Below, piece after piece: positions 23,860-47,740 of a stretch of DNA of 64,000 nucleotides. A program made the position numbers and the translations under genes. Location of the stretch: assembly GCA_009927055.1 (NCBI GenBank), contig RFNS01000177.1, forward strand, positions 29,794 to 93,793. Reading direction: 5' to 3'. The DNA is from Alphaproteobacteria bacterium. GTDB lineage: Bacteria > Pseudomonadota > Alphaproteobacteria > UBA9219 > RFNS01. The notes beneath the pieces were generated by a model. The model ran no database searches. It worked only from the letters and a program-made list of their open reading frames with translations, and was not told the DNA's origin. Numbering within the stretch: position 1 is the first letter of the stretch; each line of letters opens with the position of its first letter.

Positions 23860-24441
23860 CTATTGCCCCACCAGCACTTCAGACCAGTGCTGCCGCACGT
23901 TCTTCTCAAACTGCTGATCAATATCAGAGATCAGGCCGTTCATCAGGTTATTCCAGGCGGCTTGGCGCTCGGCGGGGGTGGCGTCTTCTGGCAGCGTGGT
24001 TGAGCGTGCCGCCTCTGCACTCACAAAACCGCGCTGGGCCGTTTCCGGCTTCAGCAACTGCATCTCGGCCTTCACTGTGCCTTGCCATTGCTCGCGCTGC
24101 TGGCGGGTGAAGGTGCCCTGAAGATCTTGTCGCAGGGGCAGCGGCTGCCGCACAACCTCGGCCTGCTGAATAACCAGGGTGATTTGCCCATCGGCCCCCG
24201 CGGCCTGAAGGCGCTGCTGCTGCCAGTTGTTCAGCCGTGTTTTAAGATCAGGCATCATGGTGATGGCATGGGCCGACACGCCCACCGCATTATCGGCCGC
24301 AGCAACGTGCGCCACATTTAACCGTAAGGGCGAGAGTTGAGAGAGATCATAGACAGCAGGCACCGCCGCAGGTGTTGTGGCGCACGCCGACAACGCCAGC
24401 AAAAGCACAAAGCCCAGGCCCATCAGCCGCCCGCGCATCAT
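23860..24441 (-). CDS. Hypothetical lipoprotein
   Basis: Signal peptide with lipobox LLLALSAC; start overlaps nuoD stop. Confidence 0.5.
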
Positions 24442-26482: not shown

Positions 26483-26490
26483 GACACTGC

Positions 26491-27432: not shown

Positions 27433-27438
27433 AAAGTC

Positions 27439-28656: not shown

Positions 28657-28660
28657 ATTC

Positions 28661-31519
28661 ATGCTGGCTCTCGCACTCAGTTTTTTGTTGCTTATTTATT
28701 TCTCGATGGTCGGTTTTAGCGCGCTTGGTTTCACGCAATTAAGACAACGATTGATGATTAAACTGCTGCTGGCCCCTGCGGTGGGAATTGGGTTGGTGAT
28801 GGTCCCCATCAACCTGCTTCATTTTTTTAATTTACCTATCAGCACCATCTGCTGGCCTGTTTTTATGGCCACAATTTTTATCGCTATCTTGCTTCTGTTA
28901 AGGCAAAAACCTATTATCCACACGCATCACGTCATACGCGTGGGGCTCATTGCCCTCGCCGCCTTGCTGGTGGTGGGGTGGCCCATGTTGCTGTTCGGGC
29001 TTGACTGGCTTAGCTACACCAACGATGACATGGCCAATTATGTTCTGGGGGCGCAGCGTTGTCTGCTGCACGGCCTTCAAGACAGGCCACCTGCCACTGC
29101 ATTCTCAGAGCACACCGACTACACCGCCTTTTTCTGGTTCATGCATTGGTTTGGCGGGCACCGCGTGGGATCGGAGCAGATGATCGCCTATTTCTGGGGA
29201 TTAACCGGGCTAAACGGGCACCAGCTGTTTGTACCGATGATGAACTGCTTTCACATGGCGTTGGTCATGGCGGCCGGCGGGCTTGTGTCGGCCAATTTTT
29301 CGGGCTCACGGCAGGCTTATGTCACTCTTATTCTCATGGCTTTATCACCCCTCACAGGATTGGGCACCCTCTTTCAGCTGATCGCGCAACTGATGGGTTT
29401 ACCCGTTTTATGCGCTCTGCTGGCTCTCTCACACCGACTGGCACGGCCGACATCCTCGCACTTGGTCGGCCATATCTTGATCACCGCCTTGTTGTTCGGG
29501 GGTCTTTGCATCATTTACCCCGAAACCCTACCGTTTTATGTTCTCAGTGTCATTGTTTTTCTGCTGGCCATGACATGGCGCCGCGGGCGCACTCAAAACA
29601 CCTTACGCCTGCTCATCATTGGTAGCATCATTGCCTTGGGGAGCCTGCTGTTACTGAACGTCACTTTGGCGAACATTGTGCATTTCATGATCACGCAGGC
29701 ACAGTCGGGATCGAGCGCCCATGTGGTGCGTGGGCTGATCTTACCTTATTTCATGCTACCCACAGGGTTGCCCACTTTTTGGGGGATTTTGCCACTCACC
29801 GCCCATCTTCCCCTGCCCGACATCCTGAAAGATGTCGTGATGAATGGAATGATTCTTGTGGCCATAGCTCTTTTTGGTATCTTGCTCTGGCAACTGTTCA
29901 AACAAATAAAAAAACAAACCGTCTGCGCCATCACATCTCTTGTGATGCTTCTGCTGGGGGGTTATCTGTTCTACCAAGTTAGTGATTTTGGTCTTTTCAA
30001 GCTGTCGATGTTTATCCAGCCTTTTGTGCTGGGTGTCATGGCGATCTGGCTTTGTGAAAAGAAAAAACTTTTTTCTCCTCGCCGACAAAAAATCGTTCTG
30101 TTGCTGCTGTTGGTTCCAACCTTGGTGACTTATGGCGGCTATACGCTACGCAGCACGGGCACGATCAGCGGCAGTGCCAATGATGTGCCGCTTGCTAGCC
30201 TTAAAAAGGTCAACCAGCAATTTGCACAAACCATGGAAGAGGCCAAAGAAAAAGGCCTGAATCTTTTATGGTCAGATGCATCATGTACTGTGCTGGCTAA
30301 GTTTCAATCATTATACGCGCTGGGTGAATCTTTCCTCCTCCCCTCGCGGGATTTTCTGGGGAAACTTTTGGATCAAGCCACAGGCAAGCCTTCACCCCTC
30401 ATGAGTGAGGAAGATATTCGTGCAGGCCATGAGCTCGATCAGATTCACATCCATCAACGTCGCGTCCATCTGATGGATAATCATTCTGTTGTTAACCGGT
30501 TCAAGGTTGTCAACAACCTGGGCGATGAATTATCGCGGCGCGCCTTAATCACAACCAACCAATCACAAAGCTTTTATAATGCTTATTATGCCAACCATGA
30601 TGACGCCCCTTACTTTAGAATAGATACAAAACCGCGCAATCATCTTGTGTTTGTTTTTTCTGATTTCGGCAACCACTATTACCTGCATGATGTTAAAAAA
30701 ATTTCGTATTTTGAGTTAGAGCGAGACCCGATGTTTCCCGGCCGCCAGTTTGCAAGCATGGGGCAGTATCTTGTATTCTTTATGGTTGGCGCGCCCCAGC
30801 AACCCCGCGTTTTAATGGAACTGACCAGCACCATTCTTAAACACAAAGGCAGCCAGTTGCCCCAGCCCGTCATCTCAGGAACAGAGGAAACGGTGATGCC
30901 GTTTGTGGGGCGCGGCTCTGGCCGCATGGTCAGCGCGCCTGTGCAAGGCAAAATGATTGAAGGCGCGCCCTTTCTGGCCTTCGATATGCAATCGCCCCCC
31001 GAGCGCATGCCCATTCACCGCACAGGCCTGATGAACCTGTATCACCCTGAAATACCGCTTGATCTGCGTAACATCAGCGTGTTTGGACGCGATGTATCGA
31101 TTATCGACGACGAGGATTATGGCGCGTGGCAACGACCATCGTGGCTTGAAAAATTTCCGGCCGATCTGTCGCACAAACATCTGGAATATTCGGGCATTTA
31201 TGAGGATGGATGGCTGTCTGAACACAGTTTGTTTGTTTTATCACGCCCCGATAAAAATTCAGTCCTGCACATTCAAGGATTGATCCCTTTGGTAAAAAAT
31301 AGCCAATTCAGCACAACTCTGACTGTAAAAATAAATGGGAAGAATATGTTGGAACAACAATTAGCTTTGGGCGAGTTTCACTTCCGCATCCCGTCCGATC
31401 AGTTGCCCGAAAGCACAAGCTACCGCATTGAACTCATTTTCTCTGCCGCCCAGAAGCTGCCAGGCGATGATGCCCGCGTGGCCGTGGGCCAGCTGCACGC
31501 CATCGGGTTCAGGCCCTGA
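28661..31519 (+). CDS. Large polytopic membrane protein, putative GT-C-fold glycosyltransferase (YfhO/ArnT-like architecture: 12-15 TM N-terminal half plus about 450-aa extracytoplasmic C-terminal domain)
   Basis: 952 aa; many TM helices to about residue 480; conserved acidic pair in first extracytoplasmic loop (WLSYTNDDMANY); immediately followed by GtrB-like and GtrA-like genes. Confidence 0.45.
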   Translation: MLALALSFLLLIYFSMVGFSALGFTQLRQRLMIKLLLAPAVGIGLVMVPINLLHFFNLPISTICWPVFMATIFIAILLLLRQKPIIHTHHVIRVGLIALAALLVVGWPMLLFGLDWLSYTNDDMANYVLGAQRCLLHGLQDRPPATAFSEHTDYTAFFWFMHWFGGHRVGSEQMIAYFWGLTGLNGHQLFVPMMNCFHMALVMAAGGLVSANFSGSRQAYVTLILMALSPLTGLGTLFQLIAQLMGLPVLCALLALSHRLARPTSSHLVGHILITALLFGGLCIIYPETLPFYVLSVIVFLLAMTWRRGRTQNTLRLLIIGSIIALGSLLLLNVTLANIVHFMITQAQSGSSAHVVRGLILPYFMLPTGLPTFWGILPLTAHLPLPDILKDVVMNGMILVAIALFGILLWQLFKQIKKQTVCAITSLVMLLLGGYLFYQVSDFGLFKLSMFIQPFVLGVMAIWLCEKKKLFSPRRQKIVLLLLLVPTLVTYGGYTLRSTGTISGSANDVPLASLKKVNQQFAQTMEEAKEKGLNLLWSDASCTVLAKFQSLYALGESFLLPSRDFLGKLLDQATGKPSPLMSEEDIRAGHELDQIHIHQRRVHLMDNHSVVNRFKVVNNLGDELSRRALITTNQSQSFYNAYYANHDDAPYFRIDTKPRNHLVFVFSDFGNHYYLHDVKKISYFELERDPMFPGRQFASMGQYLVFFMVGAPQQPRVLMELTSTILKHKGSQLPQPVISGTEETVMPFVGRGSGRMVSAPVQGKMIEGAPFLAFDMQSPPERMPIHRTGLMNLYHPEIPLDLRNISVFGRDVSIIDDEDYGAWQRPSWLEKFPADLSHKHLEYSGIYEDGWLSEHSLFVLSRPDKNSVLHIQGLIPLVKNSQFSTTLTVKINGKNMLEQQLALGEFHFRIPSDQLPESTSYRIELIFSAAQKLPGDDARVAVGQLHAIGFRP

Positions 31520-31558
31520 TCACTTGCCATGATGCGTGGCTTTATTTATCGATAAGAG

Positions 31559-32509
31559 ATGACTCGCGAAGCCCCCAACCCCCTGCTGTCGGTTGTTGTT
31601 CCTGTCTATAAGGAGGAAAACAGCATTAAGCCTTTTCTGGCGCGCATAGAGCCTGTGTGCCAAAAAATTGCCGGCGATTCTTATGAAATTATCTTTTCAC
31701 TCGATCCATCGCCCGACAAAACCGAAGATGTGATTATGGCCGAAATTCAGCGCAACCCCCATATTCGGCTGCTTGTTTTCTCGCGGAGGTTTGGGCAACC
31801 GGCCGCCACCATGGCGGGCATTTTGTCATCGCAAGGGCAACACTGCGTGGCGATTGATGTTGACCTGCAAGACCCGCCCGAATTGATTGAAACCATGTTC
31901 CAAAAACTGGGCGAGGGGTTTGAAGTGGTTTATGCCCAGCGCCGCACGCGCGAGGGCGAAACGTGGGTGAAAAAAACCATTGCTGAATTCGGTTATGCGG
32001 TCATCAATAAACTGAGTGATGTTAAAATCCCCCGCAACACGGGCGATTTTCGCATCATGACACGCCGCGTGGTGGAAGAACTGCGCCGCCTGAACGAAAC
32101 GCACGGCTTTTTGCGCGGGCTGGTGGCGTTTGTGGGCTTTAAGCAGGCCGCAGTGTTATACGATCGCGATGCACGCTTTGCTGATGTGGGCAAATATAAT
32201 CGCCTGACAGGTTCTTTCAAAATTGGCCTGAACGGTCTGGTTGGGTTCAGCAGTCGGCCCCTTCAGTTTATGTCGCTGATTGGTTTTTGCTTCGCCATGA
32301 TTGGCTTTTTGCTGGGGGCCTGGTACGTTTTCCAAAAAATTGTGGGTATTGAACTCACCCCCGGTCTTTCAACCACTGTGCTGGTTGTCACGTTCTTTTC
32401 TGGCGTACAGCTGCTGGCGCTGGGGCTGATGGGCGAATATGTGGGCCGCATTTATGACGAAGTGAAACGCCGCCCCGCCTATATTGTCGATCGCAAGGTC
32501 AATTTTTAA
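31559..32509 (+). CDS. Polyprenyl-phosphate glycosyltransferase (GtrB/CsbB/ArnC/DPM1-like GT2 with C-terminal TM pair)
   Basis: LSVVVPVYKEE...DDGS-like region, DVDLQDPPE (DxD), C-terminal two TM helices; 316 aa. Confidence 0.75.
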   Translation: MTREAPNPLLSVVVPVYKEENSIKPFLARIEPVCQKIAGDSYEIIFSLDPSPDKTEDVIMAEIQRNPHIRLLVFSRRFGQPAATMAGILSSQGQHCVAIDVDLQDPPELIETMFQKLGEGFEVVYAQRRTREGETWVKKTIAEFGYAVINKLSDVKIPRNTGDFRIMTRRVVEELRRLNETHGFLRGLVAFVGFKQAAVLYDRDARFADVGKYNRLTGSFKIGLNGLVGFSSRPLQFMSLIGFCFAMIGFLLGAWYVFQKIVGIELTPGLSTTVLVVTFFSGVQLLALGLMGEYVGRIYDEVKRRPAYIVDRKVNF

Positions 32510-32916
32510 TGATGGCGCTTATCAGGGAAAATCTGCGCCGGCCGGCGGTGCGATATATCTTGGTGGGCGTCACCAACACAACTTTCGCATGGCTGCTCAT
32601 GAACCTCACGCTGGGCCCGCTGGCCATGAGCCCGGCCGCCGGCATGGCCATCGTTTTTGCTTTAACGGCCATTTTTCATTTTATCGCCAATCGGCAGTTC
32701 ACCTTTCAAAGCAAGGGCAAGTGGCAGCATGATGTGCTGCGGTATCTTATCCTTTTGGGTGTCAATTACTTATCAACAACCGCCCTCACCCAATGGTTGA
32801 CCGATTTGTCGCTGCCGCTATTAATCATCACAACAGCCGCAACGGTGTGGAGCGCGCTGCTGGGCTTTGCGGGGGGCAAATTTTTTGTTTTTCGCAACGC
32901 ATCGTCATCTCTTTGA
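32509..32916 (+). CDS. GtrA-family small membrane protein (polyprenyl-P-sugar flippase-like)
   Basis: 135 aa, 4 TM, RYILVGVTNTTFAWLL... typical GtrA fold; start overlaps upstream stop (TAATG). Confidence 0.7.
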   Translation: MMALIRENLRRPAVRYILVGVTNTTFAWLLMNLTLGPLAMSPAAGMAIVFALTAIFHFIANRQFTFQSKGKWQHDVLRYLILLGVNYLSTTALTQWLTDLSLPLLIITTAATVWSALLGFAGGKFFVFRNASSSL

Positions 32917-32925
32917 GCGAAAAAC

Positions 32926-33888
32926 ATGACACAAAAAAAATATTTGGTCACCGGCGCCGCGGGCTTTATTGGCAGCACGCTGGTCGATCGTCTGCTGCGT
33001 GATGGTCACACCGTGGTGGGGATTGATAATTTTTCAACAGGACAGCGCCGCTTTCTTGAAAAGGCGCAACCCACCCCCCGCTTCACACTGATCGAGATTG
33101 ACCTGCTGCACGGCAATATTGTGCCGCATTTTGCGGGGGTTGATGGCGTGTTTCATCTGGCCGCCAATGCCGATGTGCGCTTTGGCACCGATGCCCCGCG
33201 CCGCGATTTAGAGCAAAACACCATCGTTACCCACAACGTGCTGGAAGCGATGCGACAAAACGGCGTGACACAGATTGGTTTTTCATCCACCGGCTCGGTT
33301 TATGGTGAGGCCAGGCAAATCCCCACGCCAGAGGATGGCCCCTTCCCCATCCAAACATCGCTTTATGGCGCCTCAAAACTGGCGGGCGAAGGGCTGATTG
33401 CGGCCTATGCCGAAGGTTTTGGTTTTAAGGCGTGCATTTTCCGTTTCGTCTCGGTGCTGGGGCCGCGTTACACGCACGGCCACGTGTTTGATTTTGTCCA
33501 GCAGTTGAAAAAAGACCCCGCCAACCTGCGCGTGCTGGGCAATGGCAAGCAACGCAAATCGTACATGCATGTCGATGACTGTGTCGATGCCATTTTGCTG
33601 GCGACCGAAAAATCGACCGAGAAGGTGGGCGTGTTTAATCTGGGCTGCCCCGAATATTGTGAAGTGAACGACAGCATTGGGTGGATCACCGCCCGCATGG
33701 GCCTGAATCCGCAGCTGAATTATACGGGCGGCGAACGTGGGTGGATTGGCGATAATCCGTTCATCTTCCTTGATGTACAAAAAATTCTGGCCCTAGGCTG
33801 GAATCCCAAATACACTATTCGCCAAGGCGTTGAAGCGACAGTTGATTTTCTGACGAACAATCTTTGGGTTTATGAGGCGCGATCATGA
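32926..33888 (+). CDS. NAD-dependent epimerase/dehydratase (extended SDR, UDP-sugar 4-epimerase/decarboxylase-like)
   Basis: VTGAAGFIGSTLVDRLL Rossmann motif, YxxxK present (YGASKLAGE). Confidence 0.75.
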   Translation: MTQKKYLVTGAAGFIGSTLVDRLLRDGHTVVGIDNFSTGQRRFLEKAQPTPRFTLIEIDLLHGNIVPHFAGVDGVFHLAANADVRFGTDAPRRDLEQNTIVTHNVLEAMRQNGVTQIGFSSTGSVYGEARQIPTPEDGPFPIQTSLYGASKLAGEGLIAAYAEGFGFKACIFRFVSVLGPRYTHGHVFDFVQQLKKDPANLRVLGNGKQRKSYMHVDDCVDAILLATEKSTEKVGVFNLGCPEYCEVNDSIGWITARMGLNPQLNYTGGERGWIGDNPFIFLDVQKILALGWNPKYTIRQGVEATVDFLTNNLWVYEARS

Positions 33889-34006
33889 AGGGTGTTGATC
33901 ATGCCTTAGGCCAACAAACACCTCATCACGCGGCCTGTTTGCCCAACGATGATGGCACGCTGCGCTGCATTGTGCCGGCCGATCGCGGCAAAAAATGGGG
34001 GAACTG

Positions 34007-34993
34007 ATGCGCGTAGGCATTGTGGGCTGTGGGTTGATTGGCCAAAAACGCGCCAAGGCGCTGGCGGGCGCGCATCTCACCATGTGCGCCGATGTGGTGA
34101 TGGATCGCGCCGCCGCACTGGCCAAAACCGCCAAGGCCGAGGCGACCGATGACTGGCAAAAACTGGTGACAAGCCCCCATGTTGATGTGGTTGTGGTGGC
34201 CACGCGGCATGATGTGCTGGCCCCCATAACCCGCGCCGCCATCGACAACGGCAAGCACGTTCTGGTTGAAAAACCGGCCGCACGACACACCACCGAACTG
34301 GCGGGCCTGGCCGATGCGGCCAAGCAAAAAAAGGTTTGCGTGCGCGTGGGGTTTAATCATCGCTATCATCGCGCTTTCCAAAAAGCACGGCAGATTGTGG
34401 ACAGCGGCGCGCTGGGCGAGATGATGTTTATTCGCGCGCGCTATGGCCACGGCGGGCGCGTGGGATACGATAAAGAATGGCGGGCTGATCCCGCGCTCTC
34501 TGGTGGGGGCGAGCTGATTGACCAAGGCGTGCACCTGATTGATCTGGCTGGGTGGTTTCTGGGAAATTTCCCCCACGTTGATGGTTTTGCGCACACATAT
34601 TTTTGGCAAATGCCGGTTGATGATAACGGCTTTATGATTTTGCGGACAGAAAAAAACCAGGTGGCCTTCTTGCATGCCAGCTGCACCGAATGGAAAAACA
34701 CTTTTTCGTTCGAAATGTATGGCCGCACCGGCAAACTTCATATCGAAGGTTTGGGCGGCAGCTATGGCGTTGAGCGTCTGACGCACTATGCCATGCAGCC
34801 CGAAATGGGCCCGCCGCCCACCGAAGCGTGGGAGTATCCGATGGCCGATAACTCGTGGGATGTTGAAATGGCCGAATTTCTGGCCGATATTCAGCAGGGG
34901 CGCACACCGGCCGCCGGCCTTGCAGAGGCCGAGGCCGCCCTGACAGTTGTTCAAAAAATCTACGAAAGGTCTGGATATGATCATCGCCCGTAG
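34007..34993 (+). CDS. Gfo/Idh/MocA family NAD(P)-dependent sugar oxidoreductase
   Basis: MRVGIVGCGLIGQKRAKAL..., EKP motif (VLVEKPAA). Confidence 0.75.
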   Translation: MRVGIVGCGLIGQKRAKALAGAHLTMCADVVMDRAAALAKTAKAEATDDWQKLVTSPHVDVVVVATRHDVLAPITRAAIDNGKHVLVEKPAARHTTELAGLADAAKQKKVCVRVGFNHRYHRAFQKARQIVDSGALGEMMFIRARYGHGGRVGYDKEWRADPALSGGGELIDQGVHLIDLAGWFLGNFPHVDGFAHTYFWQMPVDDNGFMILRTEKNQVAFLHASCTEWKNTFSFEMYGRTGKLHIEGLGGSYGVERLTHYAMQPEMGPPPTEAWEYPMADNSWDVEMAEFLADIQQGRTPAAGLAEAEAALTVVQKIYERSGYDHRP

Positions 34994-35957
34994 TCCCCTT
35001 CGCGTCACCCTTGGCGGCGGCGGCACCGATTTGCCTTCGTATTATCGCGAACACGAAGGATTTTTGATCGCCGCGGCGATTGATAAATATGTTTATGTCA
35101 CCGTCATGCGGCCATTTACGCCCGGAATTTTTTTGAAATACTCGCAACTTGAAAATGTGCCGCAGCCCGATGACGTGAAGCACCCCATTGTGCGCGAAGC
35201 CCTGCACATCATGAAAGAGCCCGTGCCGCAGGTTGAAATTACCACGCTGGCCGATATTCCTTCGGGTACGGGGCTTGGCTCATCGGGCAGTTTTACAACA
35301 GCCCTGATGAAGGCCCTGTATATGCATCACAAAAAACTTATTTTGCCGGCCGAGCTGGCCGAACTGGCATGCCACATTGAGATTGACCGATTGAAGGAGC
35401 CGGTGGGCAAGCAAGATCAATACATCGCGGCCTATGGCGGCATTACCTGCTTTACCTTCTGCCGCGATGATAAAGTGCAGGCGCGCCCCCTCAACATCAA
35501 TTCAGAAACGATGTTTGATCTGGAAGATAATTTGCTGCTGTTCTTCACCGGTTTTTCGCGCAGCGCCGGCAGCATTTTGAAAGACCAGAACACCAAAACG
35601 CAGCAAAATAATAACGATATGATTGCCAACCTGAATTATGTGAAAGACCTTGGCCTGCGCAGTCAAAAGGCGCTGGAAGCCGGCAACGCGCGCGAATTTG
35701 GCGCCCTGATGCACGAACATTGGGAGCACAAGAAAAAACGCAGCGGCGGCATGAGCAACCCCAAAATTGACGAATGGTATGAACTGGGCATGACAAGCGG
35801 CGCGGTGGGTGGCAAGCTGGTGGGCGCGGGCGGCGGTGGCTTCCTTATGTTCTATGCCGAGGATAGAAACAAACTGAAACATGCGATGGTGAAAGCGGGG
35901 CTGGAAGAAGTCCGTTTTCGGTTTGATTTTGAAGGCACAAAAATTGTGTTGAACTGA
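34977..35957 (+). CDS. GHMP kinase, D-glycero-alpha-D-manno-heptose 7-phosphate kinase (HddA-like)
   Basis: ARSPLRVTLGGGGTDLPSYY..., GHMP motif PSGTGLGSSGSFTTAL; positioned with gmhA/gmhB/nucleotidyltransferase. Confidence 0.65.
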   Translation: MIIARSPLRVTLGGGGTDLPSYYREHEGFLIAAAIDKYVYVTVMRPFTPGIFLKYSQLENVPQPDDVKHPIVREALHIMKEPVPQVEITTLADIPSGTGLGSSGSFTTALMKALYMHHKKLILPAELAELACHIEIDRLKEPVGKQDQYIAAYGGITCFTFCRDDKVQARPLNINSETMFDLEDNLLLFFTGFSRSAGSILKDQNTKTQQNNNDMIANLNYVKDLGLRSQKALEAGNAREFGALMHEHWEHKKKRSGGMSNPKIDEWYELGMTSGAVGGKLVGAGGGGFLMFYAEDRNKLKHAMVKAGLEEVRFRFDFEGTKIVLN

Positions 35958-36661
35958 TGATCCCCGTTGCCATTTTGGCGGGTGGGCTGGCCACGCGCCT
36001 TCGCCCCATCACCACAACCATCCCCAAGGCTTTGGCCGAAGTAGCGGGCCACCCCTTTATTCATTGGCAGCTGCAAGATCTTGCGGTGCAGGGCGCGCAC
36101 GATGTGGTGATGCTGGTGGGCTATTTGGGCGAGCAGATTGAAAAAGAAATTGGCAACGGCCACCAATACGGCCTGAACATTCGCTATGTTTTTGATGGGC
36201 CAACACTGCTGGGCACCGGCGGCGCGTTGCGTCAGGCCCTGCCGCTGCTGGGCGATGCGTTTTTTGTGCTGTATGGCGATTCCTTTTTGCAGGTCAATTA
36301 TCAGGCGGTGGAGGCGGCCTTTATCAAAAGCGGCCAGCGCGCCCTGATGACCGTGTTAAAAAACGGCAACCAATGGGACAAAAGCAATGCAACCTTCAGC
36401 GGCGGCCAACTGATTGAATATAATAAGAAAAGCCCCACACCCGCCATGACCTATATCGATTATGGCCTCAGCATTTTAACCCGCCAGGCCCTTGAAGACT
36501 GGCACGAAAACGGTGTGTTTGATCTGGCCAGTTTGTTTCACTATCTTTCGGTGAGCGGACAATTGGCGGGTTTTGAGGTGTTTGAGCGTTTCTATGAAAT
36601 CGGCACCCCGCAATCACTCGCCGAAGCCAACGCATACTTTTCATCAAAGAGGAAACCATGA
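35957..36661 (+). CDS. Sugar-1-phosphate nucleotidyltransferase (HddC-like D-glycero-alpha-D-manno-heptose 1-phosphate guanylyltransferase)
   Basis: AILAGGLATRLRPITTTIPKAL... NTP_transferase signature, 234 aa. Confidence 0.65.
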   Translation: MIPVAILAGGLATRLRPITTTIPKALAEVAGHPFIHWQLQDLAVQGAHDVVMLVGYLGEQIEKEIGNGHQYGLNIRYVFDGPTLLGTGGALRQALPLLGDAFFVLYGDSFLQVNYQAVEAAFIKSGQRALMTVLKNGNQWDKSNATFSGGQLIEYNKKSPTPAMTYIDYGLSILTRQALEDWHENGVFDLASLFHYLSVSGQLAGFEVFERFYEIGTPQSLAEANAYFSSKRKP

Positions 36662-37287
36662 CCTACGCCGCGCAACACATTCAAGAATCCATTCAGATTT
36701 TACAAAAAATTGATGCCGCCGCGATTGAACGCATGGCCGATGAGCTGGCCGCACTCCGCGCGCGCGGTGGACGACTGATTTTTCTGGGCGTGGGCGGCAG
36801 TGCGGGCAACTGCGGTCATGCCGTCAATGATTTTAGAAAAATTGTGGGCATCGAAAGTTATGCCCCCACCGATAATGTTTCAGAACTCACCGCGCGCACC
36901 AACGATGAAGGCTGGGCCAGCATTTTTATCGAGTGGTTGAAGGTTAGCAAACTGAACAACAATGATGCGGTTTTTGTTTTCTCGGTTGGCGGCGGCAATA
37001 TTGAAAAAAACATCAGCCCCAATTTGGTCACGGCCCTTCAACACGCCAAAAGTGTGGGTGCAAAAATTTTGGGCGTGGTGGGGCGCGATGGCGGCTATAC
37101 CGCCCAGGTGGCCGATGCCTGCGTGATTGTGCCCACCGTGAACAATGATAACGTCACACCCCACAGCGAGGCGTTTCAGGCCGTGGTGTGGCATTTGCTG
37201 GTGTCGCATCCCAAACTGAAAGCCAACCAAACAAAATGGGAAAGCGCCACAGGTTCGCCCGCGGTTTCTACAGCCAAAGTGGCCTAA
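36658..37287 (+). CDS. gmhA: Sedoheptulose-7-phosphate isomerase (SIS domain, GmhA)
   Basis: SIS domain GVGGSAGNCGHAVNDF..., ...FSVGGGN... Confidence 0.75.
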   Translation: MTYAAQHIQESIQILQKIDAAAIERMADELAALRARGGRLIFLGVGGSAGNCGHAVNDFRKIVGIESYAPTDNVSELTARTNDEGWASIFIEWLKVSKLNNNDAVFVFSVGGGNIEKNISPNLVTALQHAKSVGAKILGVVGRDGGYTAQVADACVIVPTVNNDNVTPHSEAFQAVVWHLLVSHPKLKANQTKWESATGSPAVSTAKVA

Positions 37288-37290
37288 GCG

Positions 37291-37824
37291 TTGACGCGCG
37301 CCGTTTTTCTTGATCGTGATGGTGTGCTGAATGCCTCGCTGGTGCGCGATGGCCAGCCCTTTCCGCCCGCCACCCTTGATGAGCTGGATATTTTGCCAGG
37401 CGTGCCCGAAGCGCTGCACAAACTGCATCATGCCGGTTTTCTTTTGCTGGTGTGCACCAATCAACCCGATATTGCGCGCGGCAAAACCAAACTGGCCGAT
37501 GTGCAAAAAATCCACGCGCACATGATGCAGACATTGCCGCTGGATGATGTTTTTATGTGCCCGCATGATGGGGGCGATGGTTGCGCGTGCCGCAAGCCCA
37601 AACCAGGCATGATTGTGCAAGGGGCCGAGAAATGGGGCGTTGACCCCCGCCAAAGCTTTATGGTGGGCGACCGCTGGCGCGATGTGGCGGCGGGCCAGGC
37701 CGCCGGTTGCACCAATTATTTTATCAACTATAACTACAACGAATCCCAGCCGCAGCCCCCTTTTTTTGAGGTTGCCTCACTTCTGGAGGCCGCGGATCAT
37801 ATCCTCTCTAACCCGGTCACATGA
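37291..37824 (+). CDS. gmhB: D,D-heptose 1,7-bisphosphate phosphatase (HAD-IIIA, GmhB)
   Basis: TTG start; AVFLDRDGVLN (DxDGT/V motif), CxHxxxxGCxCRKP zinc-binding insertion typical of GmhB. Confidence 0.7.
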   Translation: MTRAVFLDRDGVLNASLVRDGQPFPPATLDELDILPGVPEALHKLHHAGFLLLVCTNQPDIARGKTKLADVQKIHAHMMQTLPLDDVFMCPHDGGDGCACRKPKPGMIVQGAEKWGVDPRQSFMVGDRWRDVAAGQAAGCTNYFINYNYNESQPQPPFFEVASLLEAADHILSNPVT

Positions 37825-37831
37825 GGGCCCC

Positions 37832-38548
37832 ATGCCAAGCATCCATGAACTGAACGTGAAAATTTTTGCCGATGGTGCCGATAAAACAGGCATGCTGGAC
37901 ATGGCGGCGAAGGATCATATCAAAGGCCTGACCACCAACCCCACGCTGATGAATAAAGCCGGCATCAAAGATTATGAAGCCTTTGCGAAAGATATTTTGT
38001 CGGTCATTCAAACCAAACCTATTTCGTTTGAAGTTTTTTCAGATGATTTTGCCGATATGGAACGTCAGGCTCACAAAATCGCCAGCTGGGCCGATAATGT
38101 TTATGTAAAAATCCCCATCACCAACACAAAAGGTGAAAGCGCGGCACCGCTGGTGGCCAAACTGGCGCAACAAAGAATAAAACTGAACATCACCGCGCTG
38201 ATGACGCTTGATCAGGTGAAAACCGTTGTGGCTGCGGTGCAACCCGATGTGCCCAGCTATATCTCTGTTTTTGCGGGCCGCATTGCCGATACGGGCATCG
38301 ACCCCCTGCCCCTCATGCAGGCCTCGATTACGGCGATGAAGGCCAAACCCGCTTCTGAGCTGATCTGGGCCAGCCCGCGCGAACTGCTGAACGTTTTTCA
38401 GGCCGATGCGATTGGCTGCCACATTATTACCGTGACCAACGATATTTTGAAAAAATTATCGCTGGTGGGGTATGACCTGAACACCTATTCGCTGGATACC
38501 GTGAAAATGTTTTATAACGATGCGACGGCGGCGGGTTTTAAGCTATGA
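37832..38548 (+). CDS. Transaldolase/fructose-6-phosphate aldolase family (short TalC/FSA type)
   Basis: FADGAD..., TTNPTL, KIPIT (Schiff-base Lys), [16 protein letters not shown] motifs; GAGGG RBS. Confidence 0.7.
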
Positions 38549-39627
38549 AAAAAGCACTGATCACAGGCATTACGGGGCAGGATGGCGCCTATTTGGCTGA
38601 GTTTTTACTTGGCAAAGGGTATGAAGTTCACGGCGTCAAGCGTCGCAGCTCGCTGTTTAATACGCAGCGCATCGACCACATTTATCAAGACCCGCACGAA
38701 AAAGACCGCAGGCTGTTTCTCTATCACGGCGATATGACCGACAGCCTAAGTTTGCTGCGTGTTGTGCAGCGCGTTCAGCCCGATGAGATTTATAATCTTG
38801 CCGCGCAAAGCCACGTGGCCGTTAGTTTTGAAGAACCTGAATATACCGCGAATTCCGATGCGCTGGGCGCCCTCCGCCTCCTGGAAGCCATTCGCATTTT
38901 AGGGTTAGAGAAAAAAACACGCTTTTATCAGGCCAGCACGTCTGAACTTTATGGGTTGGTGCAAGAAATTCCGCAAAAAGAAACCACACCGTTTTATCCG
39001 CGCAGCCCCTATGCCGTGGCCAAGCTTTATGCCTACTGGATTACGGTCAACTACCGCGAAGCCTATGGCATGTATGCCTGCAACGGCGTGCTGTTTAACC
39101 ACGAAAGCCCGCTGCGTGGCGAAACATTTGTGACGCGCAAAATCACGCGGGCTATCTCGCGCATTTATTTGGGCCTGCAAGATTGTTTGTATATGGGCAA
39201 CCTGAACGCCAAGCGCGATTGGGGCCACGCGCGCGATTATATCGAGATGCAATGGCTGATGCTGCAGCAAAAACAGCCCGAAGATTTTGTCATCGCCACC
39301 GGTGTTCAGGCCAGCGTGCGCGATTTTATAGAAATGTCGGCGGCCGAAGTGGGCATCAAACTCACATGGCGCGGTCATGGTGTTGATGAAAAAGGCTATG
39401 ATCAAAACGACAAATGCATTGTGGCGGTTGATCCGCGCTATTTCCGCCCAACCGAGGTGGATACTCTTTTGGGCGATGCGACCAAGGCGCGCGTCAAACT
39501 TGGCTGGCAACCCAAAATTACTCTTGAAGAACTGGTGAAGGAAATGATGCAGGCCGACGTGATATCGGCCAAACGTGATGACCTGATTAAAAAGCACGGC
39601 TATGCCGTGTTCAACCACAACGAATAG
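38545..39627 (+). CDS. gmd: GDP-mannose 4,6-dehydratase
   Basis: [21 protein letters not shown]..., [17 protein letters not shown], 360 aa. Confidence 0.85.
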
Positions 39628-39629
39628 CC

Positions 39630-40601
39630 ATGGACGCCAACACAAAAATTTATGTGGCAGGACACCGCGGGCTGGCGGGGTCGGCCATTGTGCGCGGCCT
39701 TCAACGTGCCGGTTATTCAAACATTATCACGCGCACGCATGCCGAGCTTGATTTAACCCTCCCCCAACCAACAGATGATTTTTTTAGCACCACAAAGCCC
39801 GATGTTGTTTTTCTGGCCGCCGCCAAGGTGGGCGGCATTGTGGCCAACAACACTTATCCGGCTGATTTTTTGCGCGAAAACCTGGCCATTCAGAACAACG
39901 TGATTGATGCCGCGCATCGTCATGGCGTGGCGCGGCTTGTTTTTCTTGGCTCCAGCTGCATTTACCCGCGCGATTGTCCGCAGCCAATCAAAGAAAATTA
40001 TCTGCTCACAGGCCCGCTGGAGGCCACCAACAGCGCCTATGCTCTGGCCAAAATTTCAGGCGTTGAAATGTGCCGCGCTTATAATCAGCAGCATGGCACG
40101 CATTTTTTGGCTGCCATGCCCACCAATCTTTATGGACCTGGCGATAATTATGATTTGCAGCATTCGCACGTGCTGCCCGCCCTTATTCGCAAGGCGCACG
40201 AAGCCAAACAGGCCGGCGCCGCCGACATGGTGGTGTGGGGCACAGGCACACCGAAGCGCGAGCTGCTTTATTCTGATGATCTGGCCGATGCGCTGGTCAT
40301 GCTGATGCAGCTGCCCCCGCCTGCTTTTCAAAAAATATTGACCGATGAACGCTGGCCCCTCATCAACGTGGGCTGCGGCGAGGATTTAACCATCCGCGAA
40401 CTGGCGCAATTAGCCATTGAACAAGTTGGCTTCAGCGGTCAGCTGCGTTTTGACACCACACGGCCCGATGGCACCCCCCGCAAGGTGATGGATGTCTCGC
40501 GCATCAAGGCGCTGGGCTGGTCGCCAAAAATTTCTCTGGCGCACGGCATCAGCCTCGCCTATGCCGATTATCTGCAGCGCAGCCAAAAACAGGCAGCGTA
40601 A
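39630..40601 (+). CDS. fcl: GDP-L-fucose synthase (GDP-4-keto-6-deoxy-D-mannose 3,5-epimerase/4-reductase)
   Basis: KIYVAGHRGLAGSAIVR..., SSCIYP, YALAKISG catalytic triad context; 323 aa. Confidence 0.85.
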   Translation: MDANTKIYVAGHRGLAGSAIVRGLQRAGYSNIITRTHAELDLTLPQPTDDFFSTTKPDVVFLAAAKVGGIVANNTYPADFLRENLAIQNNVIDAAHRHGVARLVFLGSSCIYPRDCPQPIKENYLLTGPLEATNSAYALAKISGVEMCRAYNQQHGTHFLAAMPTNLYGPGDNYDLQHSHVLPALIRKAHEAKQAGAADMVVWGTGTPKRELLYSDDLADALVMLMQLPPPAFQKILTDERWPLINVGCGEDLTIRELAQLAIEQVGFSGQLRFDTTRPDGTPRKVMDVSRIKALGWSPKISLAHGISLAYADYLQRSQKQAA

Positions 40602-40711: not shown

Positions 40712-40888
40712 TCATACCACCTTTTTACTGGTTTTACTGGCCCCTGTGACATAAACATTCAACACAAATTCAGCGCCACCAAACTGTTTTGGGTCAACCT
40801 TCTCGCCATAACCTATCACGGCTTCTATGCCATGAGCTAACAGCGCCGCTCTGATTTCTCGTTCATAAAACTCGGTGTTTTTTTGCAT
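40712..40888 (-). CDS. Small hypothetical protein (58 aa) with strong AAGGAG RBS, low-GC spacer between glycan island and nuoC
   Basis: ATG 40888 preceded 8 nt by AAGGAG; MQKNTEFYEREIRAALLAHGIEAVIGYGEKVDPKQFGGAEFVLNVYVTGASKTSKKVV. Confidence 0.35.
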   Translation of the reverse strand: MQKNTEFYEREIRAALLAHGIEAVIGYGEKVDPKQFGGAEFVLNVYVTGASKTSKKVV

Positions 40889-40934
40889 TGTTATCTCCTT
40901 CGAATGCTTTATTAAACAATAGTCACACAACAAA

Positions 40935-41501
40935 TCAACGGCGCGAAACAACCGGCCTTGTCCCCTTTTCATCGCCGGGCAGCATCACATCGGTCATGCC
41001 AGCCCAGGGCGAGAGATTATCGAAGTTCCTAAAATCCTGCACCAGCTTCACGGGTTCATAGACCACGCGCTTTTGCTCGTCATCGTAACGAACTTCAACA
41101 AAGCCTGTCAGCGGAAAATCTTTCCGCAGGGGGTGCCCTTCAAAGCCATAATCGGTCAGAATGCGCCGCAAATCGGGGTGGCCCGAAAACTTGATGCCGT
41201 ACATATCCCAGCACTCGCGCTCAAACCACCCCGCAGCGGGATAAAGCCCCACAATGCTGGGCACGGGTGTGTTTTCGTCGGTGCACACCTTGACGCGCAG
41301 GCGGGTGTTGCGGCGCAGAGAAAGCAGGTGATACACAACCTCAAACCGCTGCTCACGCTCGGGGTAATCAACCCCACAAATATCGATCAGTTGATCGAAT
41401 TGCGTGGCGGGGTCATCGCGCAAACGTATCATTTCTGATAACAAATCTTCTACAGTAACAATCAAAGTTTGTTCGTTTGTGTCCATTAACTCGTTCATCA
41501 T
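40935..41501 (-). CDS. nuoC: NADH-quinone oxidoreductase subunit C
   Basis: 30-kDa subunit motifs (...[14 protein letters not shown]..., [22 protein letters not shown]). Confidence 0.85.
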
Positions 41502-42058
41502 GCACCATCACCCCGCACAATCACTGTCTTGCCACCACGGCGTATTTTCCTGTGCAACTGCATAATGCCATAAATCAGGGCCTCGGCGCTGGGGGGGCAG
41601 CCGGGTACATACACATCGACCGGCACAATGCGATCGCACCCACGCACGACAGAATAAGAATAATGATAATAGCCGCCGCCGTTGGCGCAGCTGCCCATGC
41701 TGATGACCCAGCGCGGCTCCGGCATCTGGTCATAAACCTTGCGCAGCGCGGGCGCCATTTTGTTGGTCAGGGTGCCGGCCACAATCATCACATCTGATTG
41801 ACGGGGTGAGGCGCGCGGCATCATGCCGAATCTGTCCAAATCATACCGGCTCATGTAGGCGTGGATCATCTCAACCCCGCAGCACGCCAAGCCAAAGGTC
41901 ATGGGCCACATGCTGCCTGTGCGGGCCCAGTTAAACAGCTCATCCAGCTTGGCCAGCAAAAAGCCTTTTTTCTCGACCGTATCATTGATATGGCTTGTCA
42001 CAGCCTCGGCCCCCGTGATGACGGGCATGGTGGGGGGCAAATCATGGGTGCGGATCAT
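41498..42058 (-). CDS. nuoB: NADH-quinone oxidoreductase subunit B
   Basis: [27 protein letters not shown] motifs for the N2 Fe-S cluster. Confidence 0.9.
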
Positions 42059-42061
42059 GGC

Positions 42062-42385
42062 TTAATTCTTAAACTCAAACACAAAATGTCGCAACAGGCC
42101 CGCATCACGAAAGCCGCAGGCGGTGTGGGCGGCGGCCGAGGCATCGTTCTCTGGCTCGGTATCAGAGGCGATGGCCAAAAAACCCATGTTTTTGGCATGG
42201 TCTATCAACTTTTCCATCAGCTGACGTCCCACCCCCTGCTGACGATAGGCCGGATCGACCCAAAAACCCTCGACATACATCACGGGGCTTTCCAGCGTGC
42301 CAAAGGCATGGCTGCGGGGCTGATAGTGCACATAGCCCACGCGCTTGTCGCCATCAAAAATTTCAAAGGATTCGTATTTGTGCAC
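42062..42385 (-). CDS. Short GNAT-family N-acetyltransferase (107 aa; lacks usual N-terminal third) inserted between nuoA and nuoB
   Basis: Motif A (V..A..RQQGVGRQLMEKL) then GF...; bounded 6 nt from nuoA stop. Confidence 0.55.
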   Translation of the reverse strand: MHKYESFEIFDGDKRVGYVHYQPRSHAFGTLESPVMYVEGFWVDPAYRQQGVGRQLMEKLIDHAKNMGFLAIASDTEPENDASAAAHTACGFRDAGLLRHFVFEFKN

Positions 42386-42391: not shown

Positions 42392-42760
42392 CTATTCCCA
42401 CTCCAGCGCGCCCTTTTTCCATTCATAGATAAACCCGATGGTAAGAACGCCCAAAAATATCATGACCGACCAAAAAGCCGCCACCCCGCCTTCAAACAAA
42501 CTGACCGACCACGGGAACAAAAACGCCACTTCCAAATCGAAAATAATAAACAGAATGGCAACCAGATAAAACCGCACATCGAAACGGCGGCGCGCATCGC
42601 TGAAGGCTTCAAAGCCGCATTCGTACGCCGAGACTTTTTCAGGATCAGGTTTCTGTTTGGCCAGCACAAACGAAAGGCCAGAGGCCGCCAGCGCCACCCC
42701 CAGCGCCACCGCCAGGAAGACCAGAATGGGGAGATATTGAACAGCGATATCAGAAAGCAT
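42392..42760 (-). CDS. nuoA: NADH-quinone oxidoreductase subunit A
   Basis: 122 aa, 3 [14 protein letters not shown]... motif. Confidence 0.85.
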
Positions 42761-42958: not shown

Positions 42959-44380
42959 TTATGAAGTGCTGCCCCTCATCCGCGATGACCAGCTTTGCGC
43001 CACCCCCATGCCCAAAATGGTGGCATAAGTTACGCTGATGGCGGGGATTTGCAGGCTGAAATCGACCACACTGTGCAGCCCCACCTGCACGCTGACGGCC
43101 AGGGCCAGAATAGGGAAAATCGCATCGCGCTGGCGTTCCATCGCGCCCATTAAACAACGCCACACCAAATACGCCAACGCGGCCAGCACCAGAATGGCCA
43201 TGGGCAGGCCCAAATCAAACGCCAGCTCTAAATAATCGTTATGCGTTTTGTGCACCCACCCTTCGACCGAAGGATCGCGATACAATCGGAAAGCCTGATC
43301 AAAATTGCCAAAGCCATGACCAAACCACGGGTTATTCAAAATGGCCTGCCATGTCAGTTCATAGACGCGCCAACGGTAAGGCACATCGCTGGCCAAGGCG
43401 CTGCCCGAAAGGCGTTCAAGCAACCCCGCCCCGCCCAGCGCCAACCCAAACAGTGCCAGCCCCACCATGCCCAGCGCCAGCAACCCCGCCGTGACCACCG
43501 AAAGTTTTCGGTTAAGGCTGAACGCCAGCACCAAAACCACCAGCCCCGCCATGGTGCTGAAAAAACCGGCGCGACTGTCAGAATAAATCAGCGCCACCAG
43601 CAGCACCAGCGGCAGCAAAACCCACACAAGCTCGCGCCCCACAAAGCGCTGCAACAAATCGTGCCAGAAGTTTTTTTTGTCAATCTCATCCCACGCGTGG
43701 CGCCAGCGCCGGAGCACAAAAGCCACCGCCGCCAAAAAGCCCATGCCCGCATAGGTGGCATAAGAATTGCGGTTGATAAATGTGCTGGTCAGGTTATCGA
43801 TGTATCGGGTTTTCTCCATCCACAAAATCATGTTCAGGCCCATAAATTCCATGCTCAAACCGTACAGAGCATAAAGAACACCCGCAAAAATAATCATGCG
43901 CAACAGCAGGTGCGCATCATCGGCGTGCGCGGCAACAGAAAGCGCCATAAAAAAAACCACGGCATACATGCCAAACCGCAGCACGCTGGTGTACGTCGCC
44001 GTCGGATCAAGCGCGATGCGTGGTGTGAGTGAAAAAGTTTGATCGGTTTGCGATAAAATTTTCTGCGCCTCCAGCCACAGAGGGTGCGCCCACTCGGCCG
44101 CATGCCAGCCGGTGGTCTGCCACAGGGCGAACGCCATCACCATCACCGCCACGATGCCTGTCAGCACAAGCCCTGTCTGACATTTTAAGGCACACAGCTG
44201 CGGTTGCCGCCACACCGCCACGCCATAAAGGGCGGCCAGCGCGCCCATCGCAACGGCCATCAGCGCCGCCGACCATAAACGGTTGGCCCCCAACGGCAGG
44301 GGCGCCAGCAGCAGCACAAGGCACAGGCCAATTACTGCCAGCCTGACAAGCAATGTGGGCAAATCAGAACGCCATGTCAT
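42959..44380 (-). CDS. O-antigen ligase/polymerase family membrane protein (Wzy_C/WaaL-like)
   Basis: 473 aa, about 12 TM, periplasmic loop with HKTHNDYLELAFDLG (H-N-D-Y-L signature of O-antigen ligase family). Confidence 0.7.
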   Translation of the reverse strand: MTWRSDLPTLLVRLAVIGLCLVLLLAPLPLGANRLWSAALMAVAMGALAALYGVAVWRQPQLCALKCQTGLVLTGIVAVMVMAFALWQTTGWHAAEWAHPLWLEAQKILSQTDQTFSLTPRIALDPTATYTSVLRFGMYAVVFFMALSVAAHADDAHLLLRMIIFAGVLYALYGLSMEFMGLNMILWMEKTRYIDNLTSTFINRNSYATYAGMGFLAAVAFVLRRWRHAWDEIDKKNFWHDLLQRFVGRELVWVLLPLVLLVALIYSDSRAGFFSTMAGLVVLVLAFSLNRKLSVVTAGLLALGMVGLALFGLALGGAGLLERLSGSALASDVPYRWRVYELTWQAILNNPWFGHGFGNFDQAFRLYRDPSVEGWVHKTHNDYLELAFDLGLPMAILVLAALAYLVWRCLMGAMERQRDAIFPILALAVSVQVGLHSVVDFSLQIPAISVTYATILGMGVAQSWSSRMRGSTS

Positions 44381-47737: not shown

Positions 47738-47740
47738 GAT

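Follow-up and report, generated by a model that had tools for sequence, protein, structure and literature searches.

The GDP-D-glycero-alpha-D-manno-heptose pathway of Aneurinibacillus thermoaerophilus, Campylobacter jejuni, Yersinia pseudotuberculosis and Burkholderia pseudomallei (WcbL, WcbM and WcbN in the last) activates its sugar in four steps, with an isomerase, a kinase, a phosphatase and a nucleotidyltransferase. Its substrate, sedoheptulose-7-phosphate, is available in any cell with transketolase, and to our knowledge the known heptose clusters carry no transaldolase. The GDP-octose pathway of the lincosamide producers Streptomyces lincolnensis and Streptomyces caelestis follows the same logic with a dedicated transaldolase as an integral first step. 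The enzyme families of this route are a transaldolase (LmbR), an isomerase (LmbN), a kinase (LmbP), a phosphatase (LmbK) and a guanylyltransferase (LmbO), followed by an epimerase (LmbM), a nucleotide-sugar dehydrogenase (LmbL), an NAD(P) oxidoreductase (LmbZ) and an aminotransferase (LmbS), and LmbR makes octulose-8-phosphate from ribose-5-phosphate (PMC4351081, PMC12945683). The present analysis concerns a sugar-activation gene cassette that holds the first five of these families in the genome of an alphaproteobacterium (Alphaproteobacteria bacterium, assembly GCA_009927055.1), within a stretch of 64,000 nucleotides (contig RFNS01000177.1, positions 29,794 to 93,793 of the forward strand) that is referred to below as the window.

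Comparison of this locus with related loci and with the described pathways points to two separate functional units, a higher-sugar cassette (32926-38548) and an ordinary GDP-fucose pair (38545-40601). An arrangement in which a transaldolase-first cassette makes a higher sugar activated with a nucleoside diphosphate (NDP), a lipid carrier delivers this sugar and a separate branch makes GDP-fucose is likely. For the cassette product itself, the balance leans slightly towards a C8 sugar of the lincosamide (Lmb) type, an octose built on ribose-5-phosphate as the acceptor, rather than D-glycero-D-manno-heptose, with a rough probability of 0.4-0.45. The case for a C8 sugar is made by the obligatory transaldolase, the isomerase that is not a GmhA and the match of the enzyme families to those of the Lmb pathway. 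Tentatively, the cassette would be the counterpart of the lincomycin sugar pathway in the cell envelope, and perhaps its evolutionary origin. It would send an NDP-octose by way of undecaprenyl phosphate (Und-P), GtrA and a GT-C family that is new to the surface glycans of bacteria from many phyla.

A conserved cassette within a glycan island

The cassette lies in a glycan island of 15 genes on a single strand (25730-40601, + strand, ~15 kb). The island consists of the following genes, given in order with their lengths in amino acids (aa) where relevant and with their family matches.

25730-26482, + strand, GT2 glycosyltransferase GT2a, the first gene of the island (PF00535)
26479-27432, + strand, 317-aa protein of unassigned function, no Pfam or NCBIfam match and no predicted transmembrane (TM) segment
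27439-28656, + strand, GT2 glycosyltransferase GT2b (PF00535 at residues 141-265)
28661-31519, + strand, 952-aa membrane glycosyltransferase with a predicted GT-C fold (no Pfam match)
31559-32509, + strand, polyprenyl-phosphate glycosyltransferase GT2c of the ArnC/PgfS/GtrB type, 316 aa (PF00535)
32509-32916, + strand, small membrane protein of the GtrA family (PF04138)
32926-33888, + strand, GalE-like epimerase/dehydratase of the short-chain dehydrogenase/reductase (SDR) family, first gene of the conserved cassette, tailoring (PF01370)
33995-34993, + strand, GFO/IDH/MocA NAD(P) oxidoreductase, sugar 3-dehydrogenase-like, tailoring (PF01408, PF22725)
34977-35957, + strand, GHMP sugar-phosphate kinase, anomeric C1 kinase of the HddA/LmbP class (PF00288, PF08544)
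35957-36661, + strand, sugar-1-phosphate nucleotidyltransferase of the HddC/LmbO class (PF00483)
36658-37287, + strand, SIS-domain ketose/aldose phosphate isomerase of a subfamily distinct from GmhA (PF13580)
37291-37824, + strand, HAD-IIIA phosphatase of the GmhB/LmbK class, terminal phosphate removal (TIGR01656, TIGR01662)
37832-38548, + strand, transaldolase, 238 aa, proposed first committed step of the cassette (PF00923, TIGR02134)
38545-39627, + strand, Gmd, GDP-mannose 4,6-dehydratase (TIGR01472)
39630-40601, + strand, Fcl/WcaG-like GDP-L-fucose synthase (NF047922)

The seven genes from the GHMP kinase to Fcl (34977-40601), at the 3' end of the island, are tightly packed with junctions of -17 to +7 nt, which indicates one operon. 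Family profile matches confirm the identity and placement of these seven genes as given in a preliminary description of the locus. That description took 34977-40601 as the whole unit, which holds for the seven genes but not for the start, since the cassette begins at 32926 and the island at 25730.

In all, ~160 related loci were fetched with the transaldolase or the isomerase as the probe, and loci were compared by tblastn with the window proteins and by clustering of their open reading frames (ORFs). A scan of one genome per species with the transaldolase probe gave 80 loci (61-74% identity), taking in an Asaia metagenome-assembled genome (MAG), Rhizobium tubonense, Yersinia alsatica, Legionella, Chlorobiaceae, bacteria of the candidate phyla radiation (CPR), Pelagibacteraceae, Leptolyngbya, Caldilinea, Verrucomicrobiota, Acidobacteriota and Bacteroidota. 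The cassette occurs with fixed spacing in more than 100 loci of Alpha-, Beta- and Gammaproteobacteria, Chlorobiaceae, CPR, Cyanobacteria, Chloroflexota, Verrucomicrobiota, Acidobacteriota, Bacteroidota and others, and its proteins are 55-84% identical to those of the window across phyla. The canonical gene order is SDR-(nucleotide-sugar dehydrogenase, TIGR03026)-(adh_short)-GFO-GHMP kinase-nucleotidyltransferase-SIS-HAD-transaldolase, in which the five 3' genes form the constant core and the tailoring genes vary between loci. The SDR has a fixed position and is 58-72% identical in related loci, and the GFO oxidoreductase is 57-73% identical. The slot of the dehydrogenase is sometimes occupied by a methyltransferase and sometimes empty, and CPR bacteria and Chlorobium have other tailoring sets. 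The tailoring part of the window cassette is limited to the SDR and the GFO oxidoreductase, a form found in only one other of the loci examined (L050). A non-coding gap of 106 nt (33889-33994) separates the two genes exactly where most related cassettes hold the dehydrogenase and adh_short (2.2 kb), and may be a deletion scar.

Because the first scan was anchored on the transaldolase, it was repeated on metagenome contigs with the isomerase as the probe. The HAD phosphatase and the transaldolase lie directly 3' of the isomerase in 45 of the 46 loci with enough downstream sequence; the sole exception (L099) has a large membrane protein where the two are expected. Gene fusions among 150 representatives of the isomerase family join the isomerase to the nucleotidyltransferase (16 cases) and to the phosphatase in either order (SIS-HAD in 11, HAD-SIS in 7), and also to the transaldolase in either order (transaldolase-SIS in P0179, SIS-transaldolase in P0215). 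Judged from these arrangements, the transaldolase is a core part of the cassette and its most constant member, rather than an incidental local supplier of sedoheptulose-7-phosphate, a role that the preliminary description had given as possible.

The transaldolase-isomerase pair also occurs with two other activation systems. In Legionella, Verrucomicrobiota and Bacteroidia, it is combined with an HldE-like cytidylyltransferase-PfkB fusion; loci of this variant (L016, L047, L035, L064 and L052) hold a reversed 533-aa fusion together with SDRs, a GFO-like protein and a nucleotide-sugar dehydrogenase. In Caulobacter and Bacteroidota, the pair is combined with a KdsB-like cytidylyltransferase and an HpcH/HpaI aldolase, with a D-2-hydroxyacid dehydrogenase, a methyltransferase and a GFO protein in addition (L023, L024, L027, L031 and L046), which hints at a CMP-activated sugar acid of some kind. 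A conserved SIS-(HAD)-transaldolase trio is common to the two variants. A further locus in an actinobacterial-type MAG (L083, 6213-14909) reads SDR-222-aa transaldolase-GHMP kinase-HAD/SIS-carbamoyltransferase-GT2-SDR. Its transaldolase is of the ordinary 222-aa type and 31% identical to that of the window, and its isomerase belongs to the same subfamily as that of the window. Here, another subfamily of transaldolase has been recruited independently into a pathway of the same kind.

Exhaustive searching by HMMER with the SIS protein yielded 412 cluster representatives below 1e-30, and members of the family carry the JGI label D-sedoheptulose 7-phosphate isomerase. A word-index search with an actinobacterial member of the family (P0267, Curtobacterium) returned no Streptomyces or Lmb entry, and an LmbN-like candidate of 280 aa (P0258) is a HAD/SIS overlap that belongs to an unrelated cluster. 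The literature searched for a transaldolase-containing heptose or octose glycan cluster gave no account of the cassette. The cassette is widespread but undescribed in that literature, and in databases its parts carry generic names or those of heptose enzymes.

Enzymes of the cassette and the carbon number of the product

The preliminary description assigned the kinase, the nucleotidyltransferase, the isomerase and the phosphatase to the GDP-heptose route. The enzyme classes and the order of the chemistry agree with this assignment. However, none of the four proteins reaches the curated cutoffs of the GDP- or ADP-heptose enzymes, and GDP is an assumption. The isomerase had been taken for GmhA but stays at 45.8 bits on the equivalog model of that enzyme, TIGR00441 (cutoff 209.45), and at 51.6 bits against B. 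pseudomallei GmhA. In the alignment with the latter, His64 and His183 are kept, the catalytic Glu68 is replaced by Asp and Gln175 by Glu, and the phosphate loop has an insertion of 6 aa (S-V-G-G-G-N-I-E-K-N-I-S vs. S-T-S-G-K-S). These active-site and phosphate-loop changes form a signature conserved over 171 sequences. By alignment, the isomerase is a member of a separate subfamily far outside GmhA.

The GHMP kinase scores 157.3 bits on the HddA model NF049969, whose cutoff is narrow (600), and its best PDB matches are 3k85 (166 bits), WcbL (149-153 bits) and C. jejuni HddA (4n3o, 125 bits). The phosphatase passes the HAD-IIIA domain models TIGR01656 (129 bits) and TIGR01662 (90.7 bits) but stays below the cutoffs of the GmhB models (NF006506, 127 vs. 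178; TIGR00213, 95.9 vs. 149.6), with PDB matches to GmhB of 69-94 bits. The nucleotidyltransferase scores 129 bits on the MurU model (cutoff 250) and 84.5 bits on the HddC model NF049965 (cutoff 300), and the PDB matches rank likewise (MurU 106 bits vs. HddC 62-63 bits). Since MurU uses UTP, GDP as the nucleotide is an assumption. Among the tailoring enzymes, the SDR has an archaeal GalE-like protein as the best PDB match (3ehe, 275 bits), and the nearest solved relatives of the GFO oxidoreductase are levoglucosan dehydrogenase, DgpA and KijD10.

The transaldolase scores 337.6 bits on TIGR02134 ('transald_staph', cutoff 281.95) and 78.6 bits on the TalC/FSA model TIGR00875 (cutoff 245.95). 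Thus, the earlier label of a TalC/FSA-type enzyme is slightly off, and the protein belongs to the TIGR02134 family. It retains all the catalytic residues of Thermoplasma acidophilum transaldolase (Asp, Glu, the Schiff-base Lys, Asn/Thr, Ser-x-Phe-x-x-Arg and Ser/Arg), and with this complete set it is predicted to be catalytically competent. FSA aldolases carry Gln and Tyr at the distinguishing positions; in their place, the window enzyme has the Glu and Phe of a typical transaldolase, which rules out an FSA aldolase. The enzyme has thousands of database relatives, with ~75% identity among the best 120 listed, and is 61-76% identical across phyla.

The cassette (32926-38548) would be a horizontally mobile unit that starts from central sugar phosphates and makes a higher-carbon aldose activated with a nucleotide. 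In the proposed order, the transaldolase would move a C3 unit from fructose-6-phosphate or sedoheptulose-7-phosphate onto an aldose phosphate, and the SIS isomerase would turn the resulting ketose phosphate into an aldose phosphate. The GHMP kinase would then phosphorylate C1, the HAD-IIIA phosphatase would take off the terminal phosphate, the nucleotidyltransferase would give the NDP-sugar, and the SDR and the GFO oxidoreductase would tailor it. The preferred acceptor for the transaldolase is ribose-5-phosphate, which would yield octulose-8-phosphate and from it an octose-type C8 sugar. In the canonical cassette, enzymes like LmbM, LmbL and LmbZ and a reductase may change the sugar further, speculatively to an 8-deoxy-octose.

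The five enzyme families encoded without interruption at 34977-38548 (transaldolase, SIS isomerase, GHMP kinase, HAD phosphatase and nucleotidyltransferase) are those that the Lmb octose route requires. An SDR resembling an epimerase and an NAD(P) oxidoreductase as putative tailoring enzymes also recall the lincosamide pathway, and the canonical cassette elsewhere adds an LmbL-like dehydrogenase. By family, the canonical cassette matches eight of the nine Lmb proteins, with adh_short in the place of the aminotransferase, and the window copy matches seven. Unlike the lincosamide pathway, the cassette has no aminotransferase, thiol or nonribosomal peptide synthetase chemistry, its product would be passed by Und-P, GtrA and a GT-C enzyme to a glycan of the cell envelope and not to an antibiotic, and it is spread over many phyla, not only Streptomyces. 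An analysis of 2015 found the best non-lincosamide matches of CcbK, CcbO and CcbZ in Acidobacteria and those of CcbN and CcbP in Sorangium (PMC4351081). Acidobacteriota are among the carriers of the cassette (L065, L073, L077 and P0205), and the two observations together are suggestive of a link to the lincosamide genes. Sedoheptulose-7-phosphate is already present wherever transketolase is, so a heptose route needs no transaldolase, whereas octulose-8-phosphate must be made. The obligatory transaldolase therefore argues against a simple use of the existing sedoheptulose-7-phosphate pool.

The carbon number is not readable from the active sites of the isomerase or the transaldolase by sequence or monomer models. 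Several points weigh against an octose. The evidence for C8 is not at the level of sequence, and for the kinase, the phosphatase and the isomerase alike the closest solved structures are those of heptose enzymes. We know of no unbranched octose reported in a bacterial cell-surface glycan, though the cassette is common. TIGR02134 is a general transaldolase family, and the enzyme could simply make sedoheptulose-7-phosphate. The likeness to the Lmb and Ccb proteins is one of enzyme families, not of demonstrated orthology. The counterpart of the GFO oxidoreductase, LmbZ, is probably a GFO/IDH/MocA protein, but the papers call it only a 'dehydrogenase' or an 'NAD(P)-dependent oxidoreductase'. The window copy is without the canonical pair of dehydrogenase and adh_short, and hence without an LmbL-like gene. 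In addition, Gmd lies directly 3' of the transaldolase here and in L013, L129/130 and L151 (and at a short distance in L106), which leaves some room for a functional link between the two. Lastly, the transaldolase subfamily is apparently different. CcbR has 222 aa and its closest non-lincosamide relative is a 'putative transaldolase' of Cellulomonas (47% identity; PMC4351081), so LmbR/CcbR looks like an ordinary small transaldolase and is probably not orthologous to the TIGR02134 enzyme of the window.

A substantial possibility is that the product is plain GDP-D-glycero-alpha-D-manno-heptose, made by divergent forms of GmhA, HddA, GmhB and HddC. The transaldolase would then boost or guarantee the supply of sedoheptulose-7-phosphate, the SDR and the GFO oxidoreductase would tailor the heptose, fucose would be separate and the delivery would be the same. 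The four shared steps and the nearest characterized homologues (3k85, WcbL and HddA for the kinase, GmhB, GmhA, and HddC among the matches of the transferase) speak for it, as do the JGI label of the isomerase family, the frequency of heptoses in bacterial glycans and the HldE-like enzyme of one back-end variant, which resembles the ADP-heptose route. The narrow cutoffs of HddA and HddC (600 and 300) could also miss a true distant orthologue. However, a near-invariant and very highly conserved transaldolase that is sometimes fused to the isomerase is unexpected where transketolase already provides the metabolite. The isomerase reaches 46 bits vs. 209 on a GmhA model that is broad, with a changed catalytic residue and phosphate loop. 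Moreover, the canonical tailoring set of nucleotide-sugar dehydrogenase, GFO oxidoreductase and GalE-like SDR differs from the tailoring of the GDP-heptose pathway; it fits LmbL, LmbZ and LmbM and no known heptose-modifying set.

It is unlikely that the transaldolase uses another acceptor (arabinose-5-phosphate, a hexose-6-phosphate, or a deoxy- or amino-sugar phosphate) or that the product is of another class, such as a ketose or a branched sugar, and so neither a D,D-heptose nor an Lmb-type octose. Diverse downstream chemistry is indicated by the three activation systems that the transaldolase-isomerase pair feeds, including the one with the KdsB-like enzyme and the HpcH/HpaI aldolase, and by the wide variation of the tailoring genes. 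However, nothing positive favours any particular alternative acceptor, and the logic of kinase, phosphatase and transferase fits an aldose with a terminal phosphate, as in the heptose and octose routes.

Probable lipid-carrier delivery and the GDP-fucose pair

Directly upstream of the cassette, the island resembles the lipid-carrier systems GtrA/GtrB/GtrC of Shigella phages, ArnC/ArnT and PgfS/PgfM of Streptococcus mutans, with a GT2 enzyme with C-terminal TM helices, a GtrA protein and a large polytopic GT-C protein side by side. GT2c scores 231.7 bits on the NCBIfam model of PgfS and 146 bits on that of ArnC, both over the full length and both below the cutoff, and its C-terminal TM helices lie at 240-292. 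Copies of GT2c with 70-76% identity are found beside the cassette, mostly upstream of it, in eight related loci (L001, L010, L011, L015, L033, L072, L116 and L157). The GtrA protein scores 52.2 bits vs. 26.1 on PF04138, and its start overlaps the stop of GT2c by 1 nt.

Residues 1-500 of the 952-aa protein contain ~13 TM helices, and a soluble domain makes up the rest. D123 is invariant and lies in the N-D-D-M-A-N-Y loop, which is the first external loop. An AlphaFold2 model of the protein from an alignment with 42 homologues has a predicted local distance difference test (pLDDT) score of 88 and a predicted template modelling (pTM) score of 0.91. The top 13 PDB matches of this model in Foldseek are all GT-C proteins (AftA, AftD, PglB, STT3 and DPY19; probability 1.00, E 2.8e-6 to 1.2e-3), which are users of polyprenyl-phosphate-linked donors. 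A GT-C fold is supported by the model, and the protein is probably a periplasmic transferase of a lipid-linked sugar. Its family has no Pfam model, its 55 homologues (including P0422-P0475) are all called 'hypothetical', and a C-terminal beta-rich periplasmic domain of ~450 aa is conserved. Homologues occur in glycan clusters with and without the cassette (L164, L165 and L166). In L164, a homologue with 35% identity stands in the same order (big protein-GT2-GtrA-SDR-dehydrogenase-adh_short-...-GFO-GHMP).

From GT2c, GtrA, the GT-C protein and the gene order of L164, the sugar is most likely loaded on Und-P, flipped and attached in the periplasm. GT2c (31559-32509) would load the sugar, GtrA would help in flipping, and the 952-aa enzyme would attach the sugar to an envelope glycan on the periplasmic side. 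Unlike the described systems, the GT-C protein of the window belongs to an unnamed family, and the donor would come from a dedicated higher-sugar cassette instead of UDP-glucose or UDP-4-amino-4-deoxy-L-arabinose (UDP-Ara4N).

Gmd scores 595.5 bits on TIGR01472 (cutoff 415), and its PDB matches are 7kf3 (616 bits) and Escherichia coli Gmd (1db3, 592 bits), vs. only 112.5 bits for the C. jejuni GDP-D-glycero-D-manno-heptose 4,6-dehydratase (7us5). By these matches, Gmd is firmly a canonical GDP-mannose 4,6-dehydratase. The match of Fcl to NF047922 covers the full length (451.9 bits, cutoff 500). NCBI names the two proteins Gmd (NBX73619) and GDP-L-fucose synthase (NBX73620). An equivalog-level Gmd, a full-length Fcl and adjacent genes are also the features of GDP-L-fucose synthesis by Gmd and Fcl/WcaG in the colanic acid system of E. 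coli. In contrast to that system, the window pair has no manB, manC or gmm beside it, and its Fcl is slightly below the curated cutoff.

The position of the pair directly downstream and the lack of manB and manC in the locus were described correctly before: no manB or manC is present among the ORFs of at least 340 aa in the window. The two genes are commonly elsewhere in alphaproteobacterial genomes. The pair adjoins the cassette in about a tenth of the ~160 loci (L003, L010, L013, L077, L106, L129/130, L151 and L156), on the opposite strand in L010, and its absence from ~90% of the related cassettes rules out gmd and fcl as cassette members. A GT2 enzyme 55-58% identical to GT2a lies directly 3' of gmd-fcl in L003, L129, L151 and L010. 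Since a GT2a-like gene accompanies gmd-fcl, the pair and the transferase apparently form a separate unit. In this unit, gmd-fcl would turn GDP-mannose, supplied from another part of the genome, into GDP-L-fucose, which a cytoplasmic transferase (probably GT2a) would use for the same glycan.

The preliminary description raised the possibility that the cassette makes GDP-D-glycero-D-manno-heptose and that Gmd and Fcl convert it to GDP-6-deoxy-heptose, as DmhA/DmhB or WcbK (DdahA) do. A dehydratase of the Gmd family and a reductase of the Fcl family beside heptose-type activation genes are indeed common to both, and in C. jejuni an Fcl-like reductase acts on derivatives of heptose. The lack of manB and manC in the window also speaks for this proposal. 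Nevertheless, this proposal is not supported and is very improbable, as the dehydratase groups with true Gmd and not with the heptose dehydratase and the pair, mostly absent from the cassettes, travels with its own transferase, which fits an independent fucose branch; it keeps a small share because the start of Gmd overlaps the stop of the transaldolase gene by 4 nt and the adjacency of the two genes recurs in a minority of loci.

Genomic setting and implications

The island is flanked by nuoC (40935-41501, - strand) and nuoD (24438-25652, - strand) and lies on the opposite strand to both. The nuo cluster is fragmented: the 15-kb island, on the other strand, stands between nuoD and the group of nuoA, a GNAT gene, nuoB and nuoC. 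The genes beyond nuoC are as follows.

41498-42058, - strand, nuoB
42062-42385, - strand, GNAT acetyltransferase, between nuoA and nuoB
42392-42760, - strand, nuoA

On the other side, nuoD is followed not by nuoE-N but by an ORF of 193 aa with no Pfam match (23860-24441, - strand) and then by clpB (21203-23785, - strand). The GC content of the island is only slightly lower than that of its flanks (0.523 vs. ~0.55). A mobile element with repeat or tRNA borders was considered for the island and rejected, since no repeats, direct or inverted, flank it and neither end has a tRNA. A terminator scan 3' of fcl gave a single weak match on the minus strand, no more than the chance expectation. The 333-nt spacer between fcl and nuoC contains a small ORF (40712-40972, - strand; 86 aa as listed, ~58 aa from an internal ATG) with no significant family match.

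Other genes related to glycans or lipids lie further away in the window. A membrane protein of the O-antigen ligase/Wzy_C family (PF04932) is encoded just past nuoA, near the glycan island (42959-44380, - strand). A fusion protein of 954 aa (16136-19000, + strand) combines PF00953, a GT4 polyprenyl-phosphate sugar-1-phosphate transferase of the WecA/WbpL type, with PF02719, a Polysacc_synt_2 4,6-dehydratase of the PglF/WbpM type, and may be the initiating enzyme of a glycan of the bacillosamine or N-acetylquinovosamine (QuiNAc) type. A radical-SAM protein with DUF3463 (9880-11055, + strand) is presumably HpnH-like, which would suggest hopanoid side-chain synthesis. A row of hemC, hemD, a mitofilin-like gene (PF09731) and HemY_N (46421-50507, - strand) is typical of Alphaproteobacteria.

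The comparisons remove a false lead, as the Gmd-Fcl pair is ordinary, and link an unnamed family of GT-C glycosyltransferases to the cassette. Carriers of the cassette in culture include Yersinia alsatica, Rhizobium tubonense, Rhizobium jaguaris and Polynucleobacter. If the sugar is a heptose, the cassette would represent a second, separate lineage of enzymes for heptose activation whose obligatory transaldolase is left unexplained, and the automatic label 'sedoheptulose 7-phosphate isomerase' would be only approximately right. If the preferred octose reading is true, the sugar would be the first of its kind in primary cell-envelope biosynthesis and would explain the origin of the lincosamide sugar genes, and unbranched octoses would be widespread but unnoticed on bacterial surfaces.

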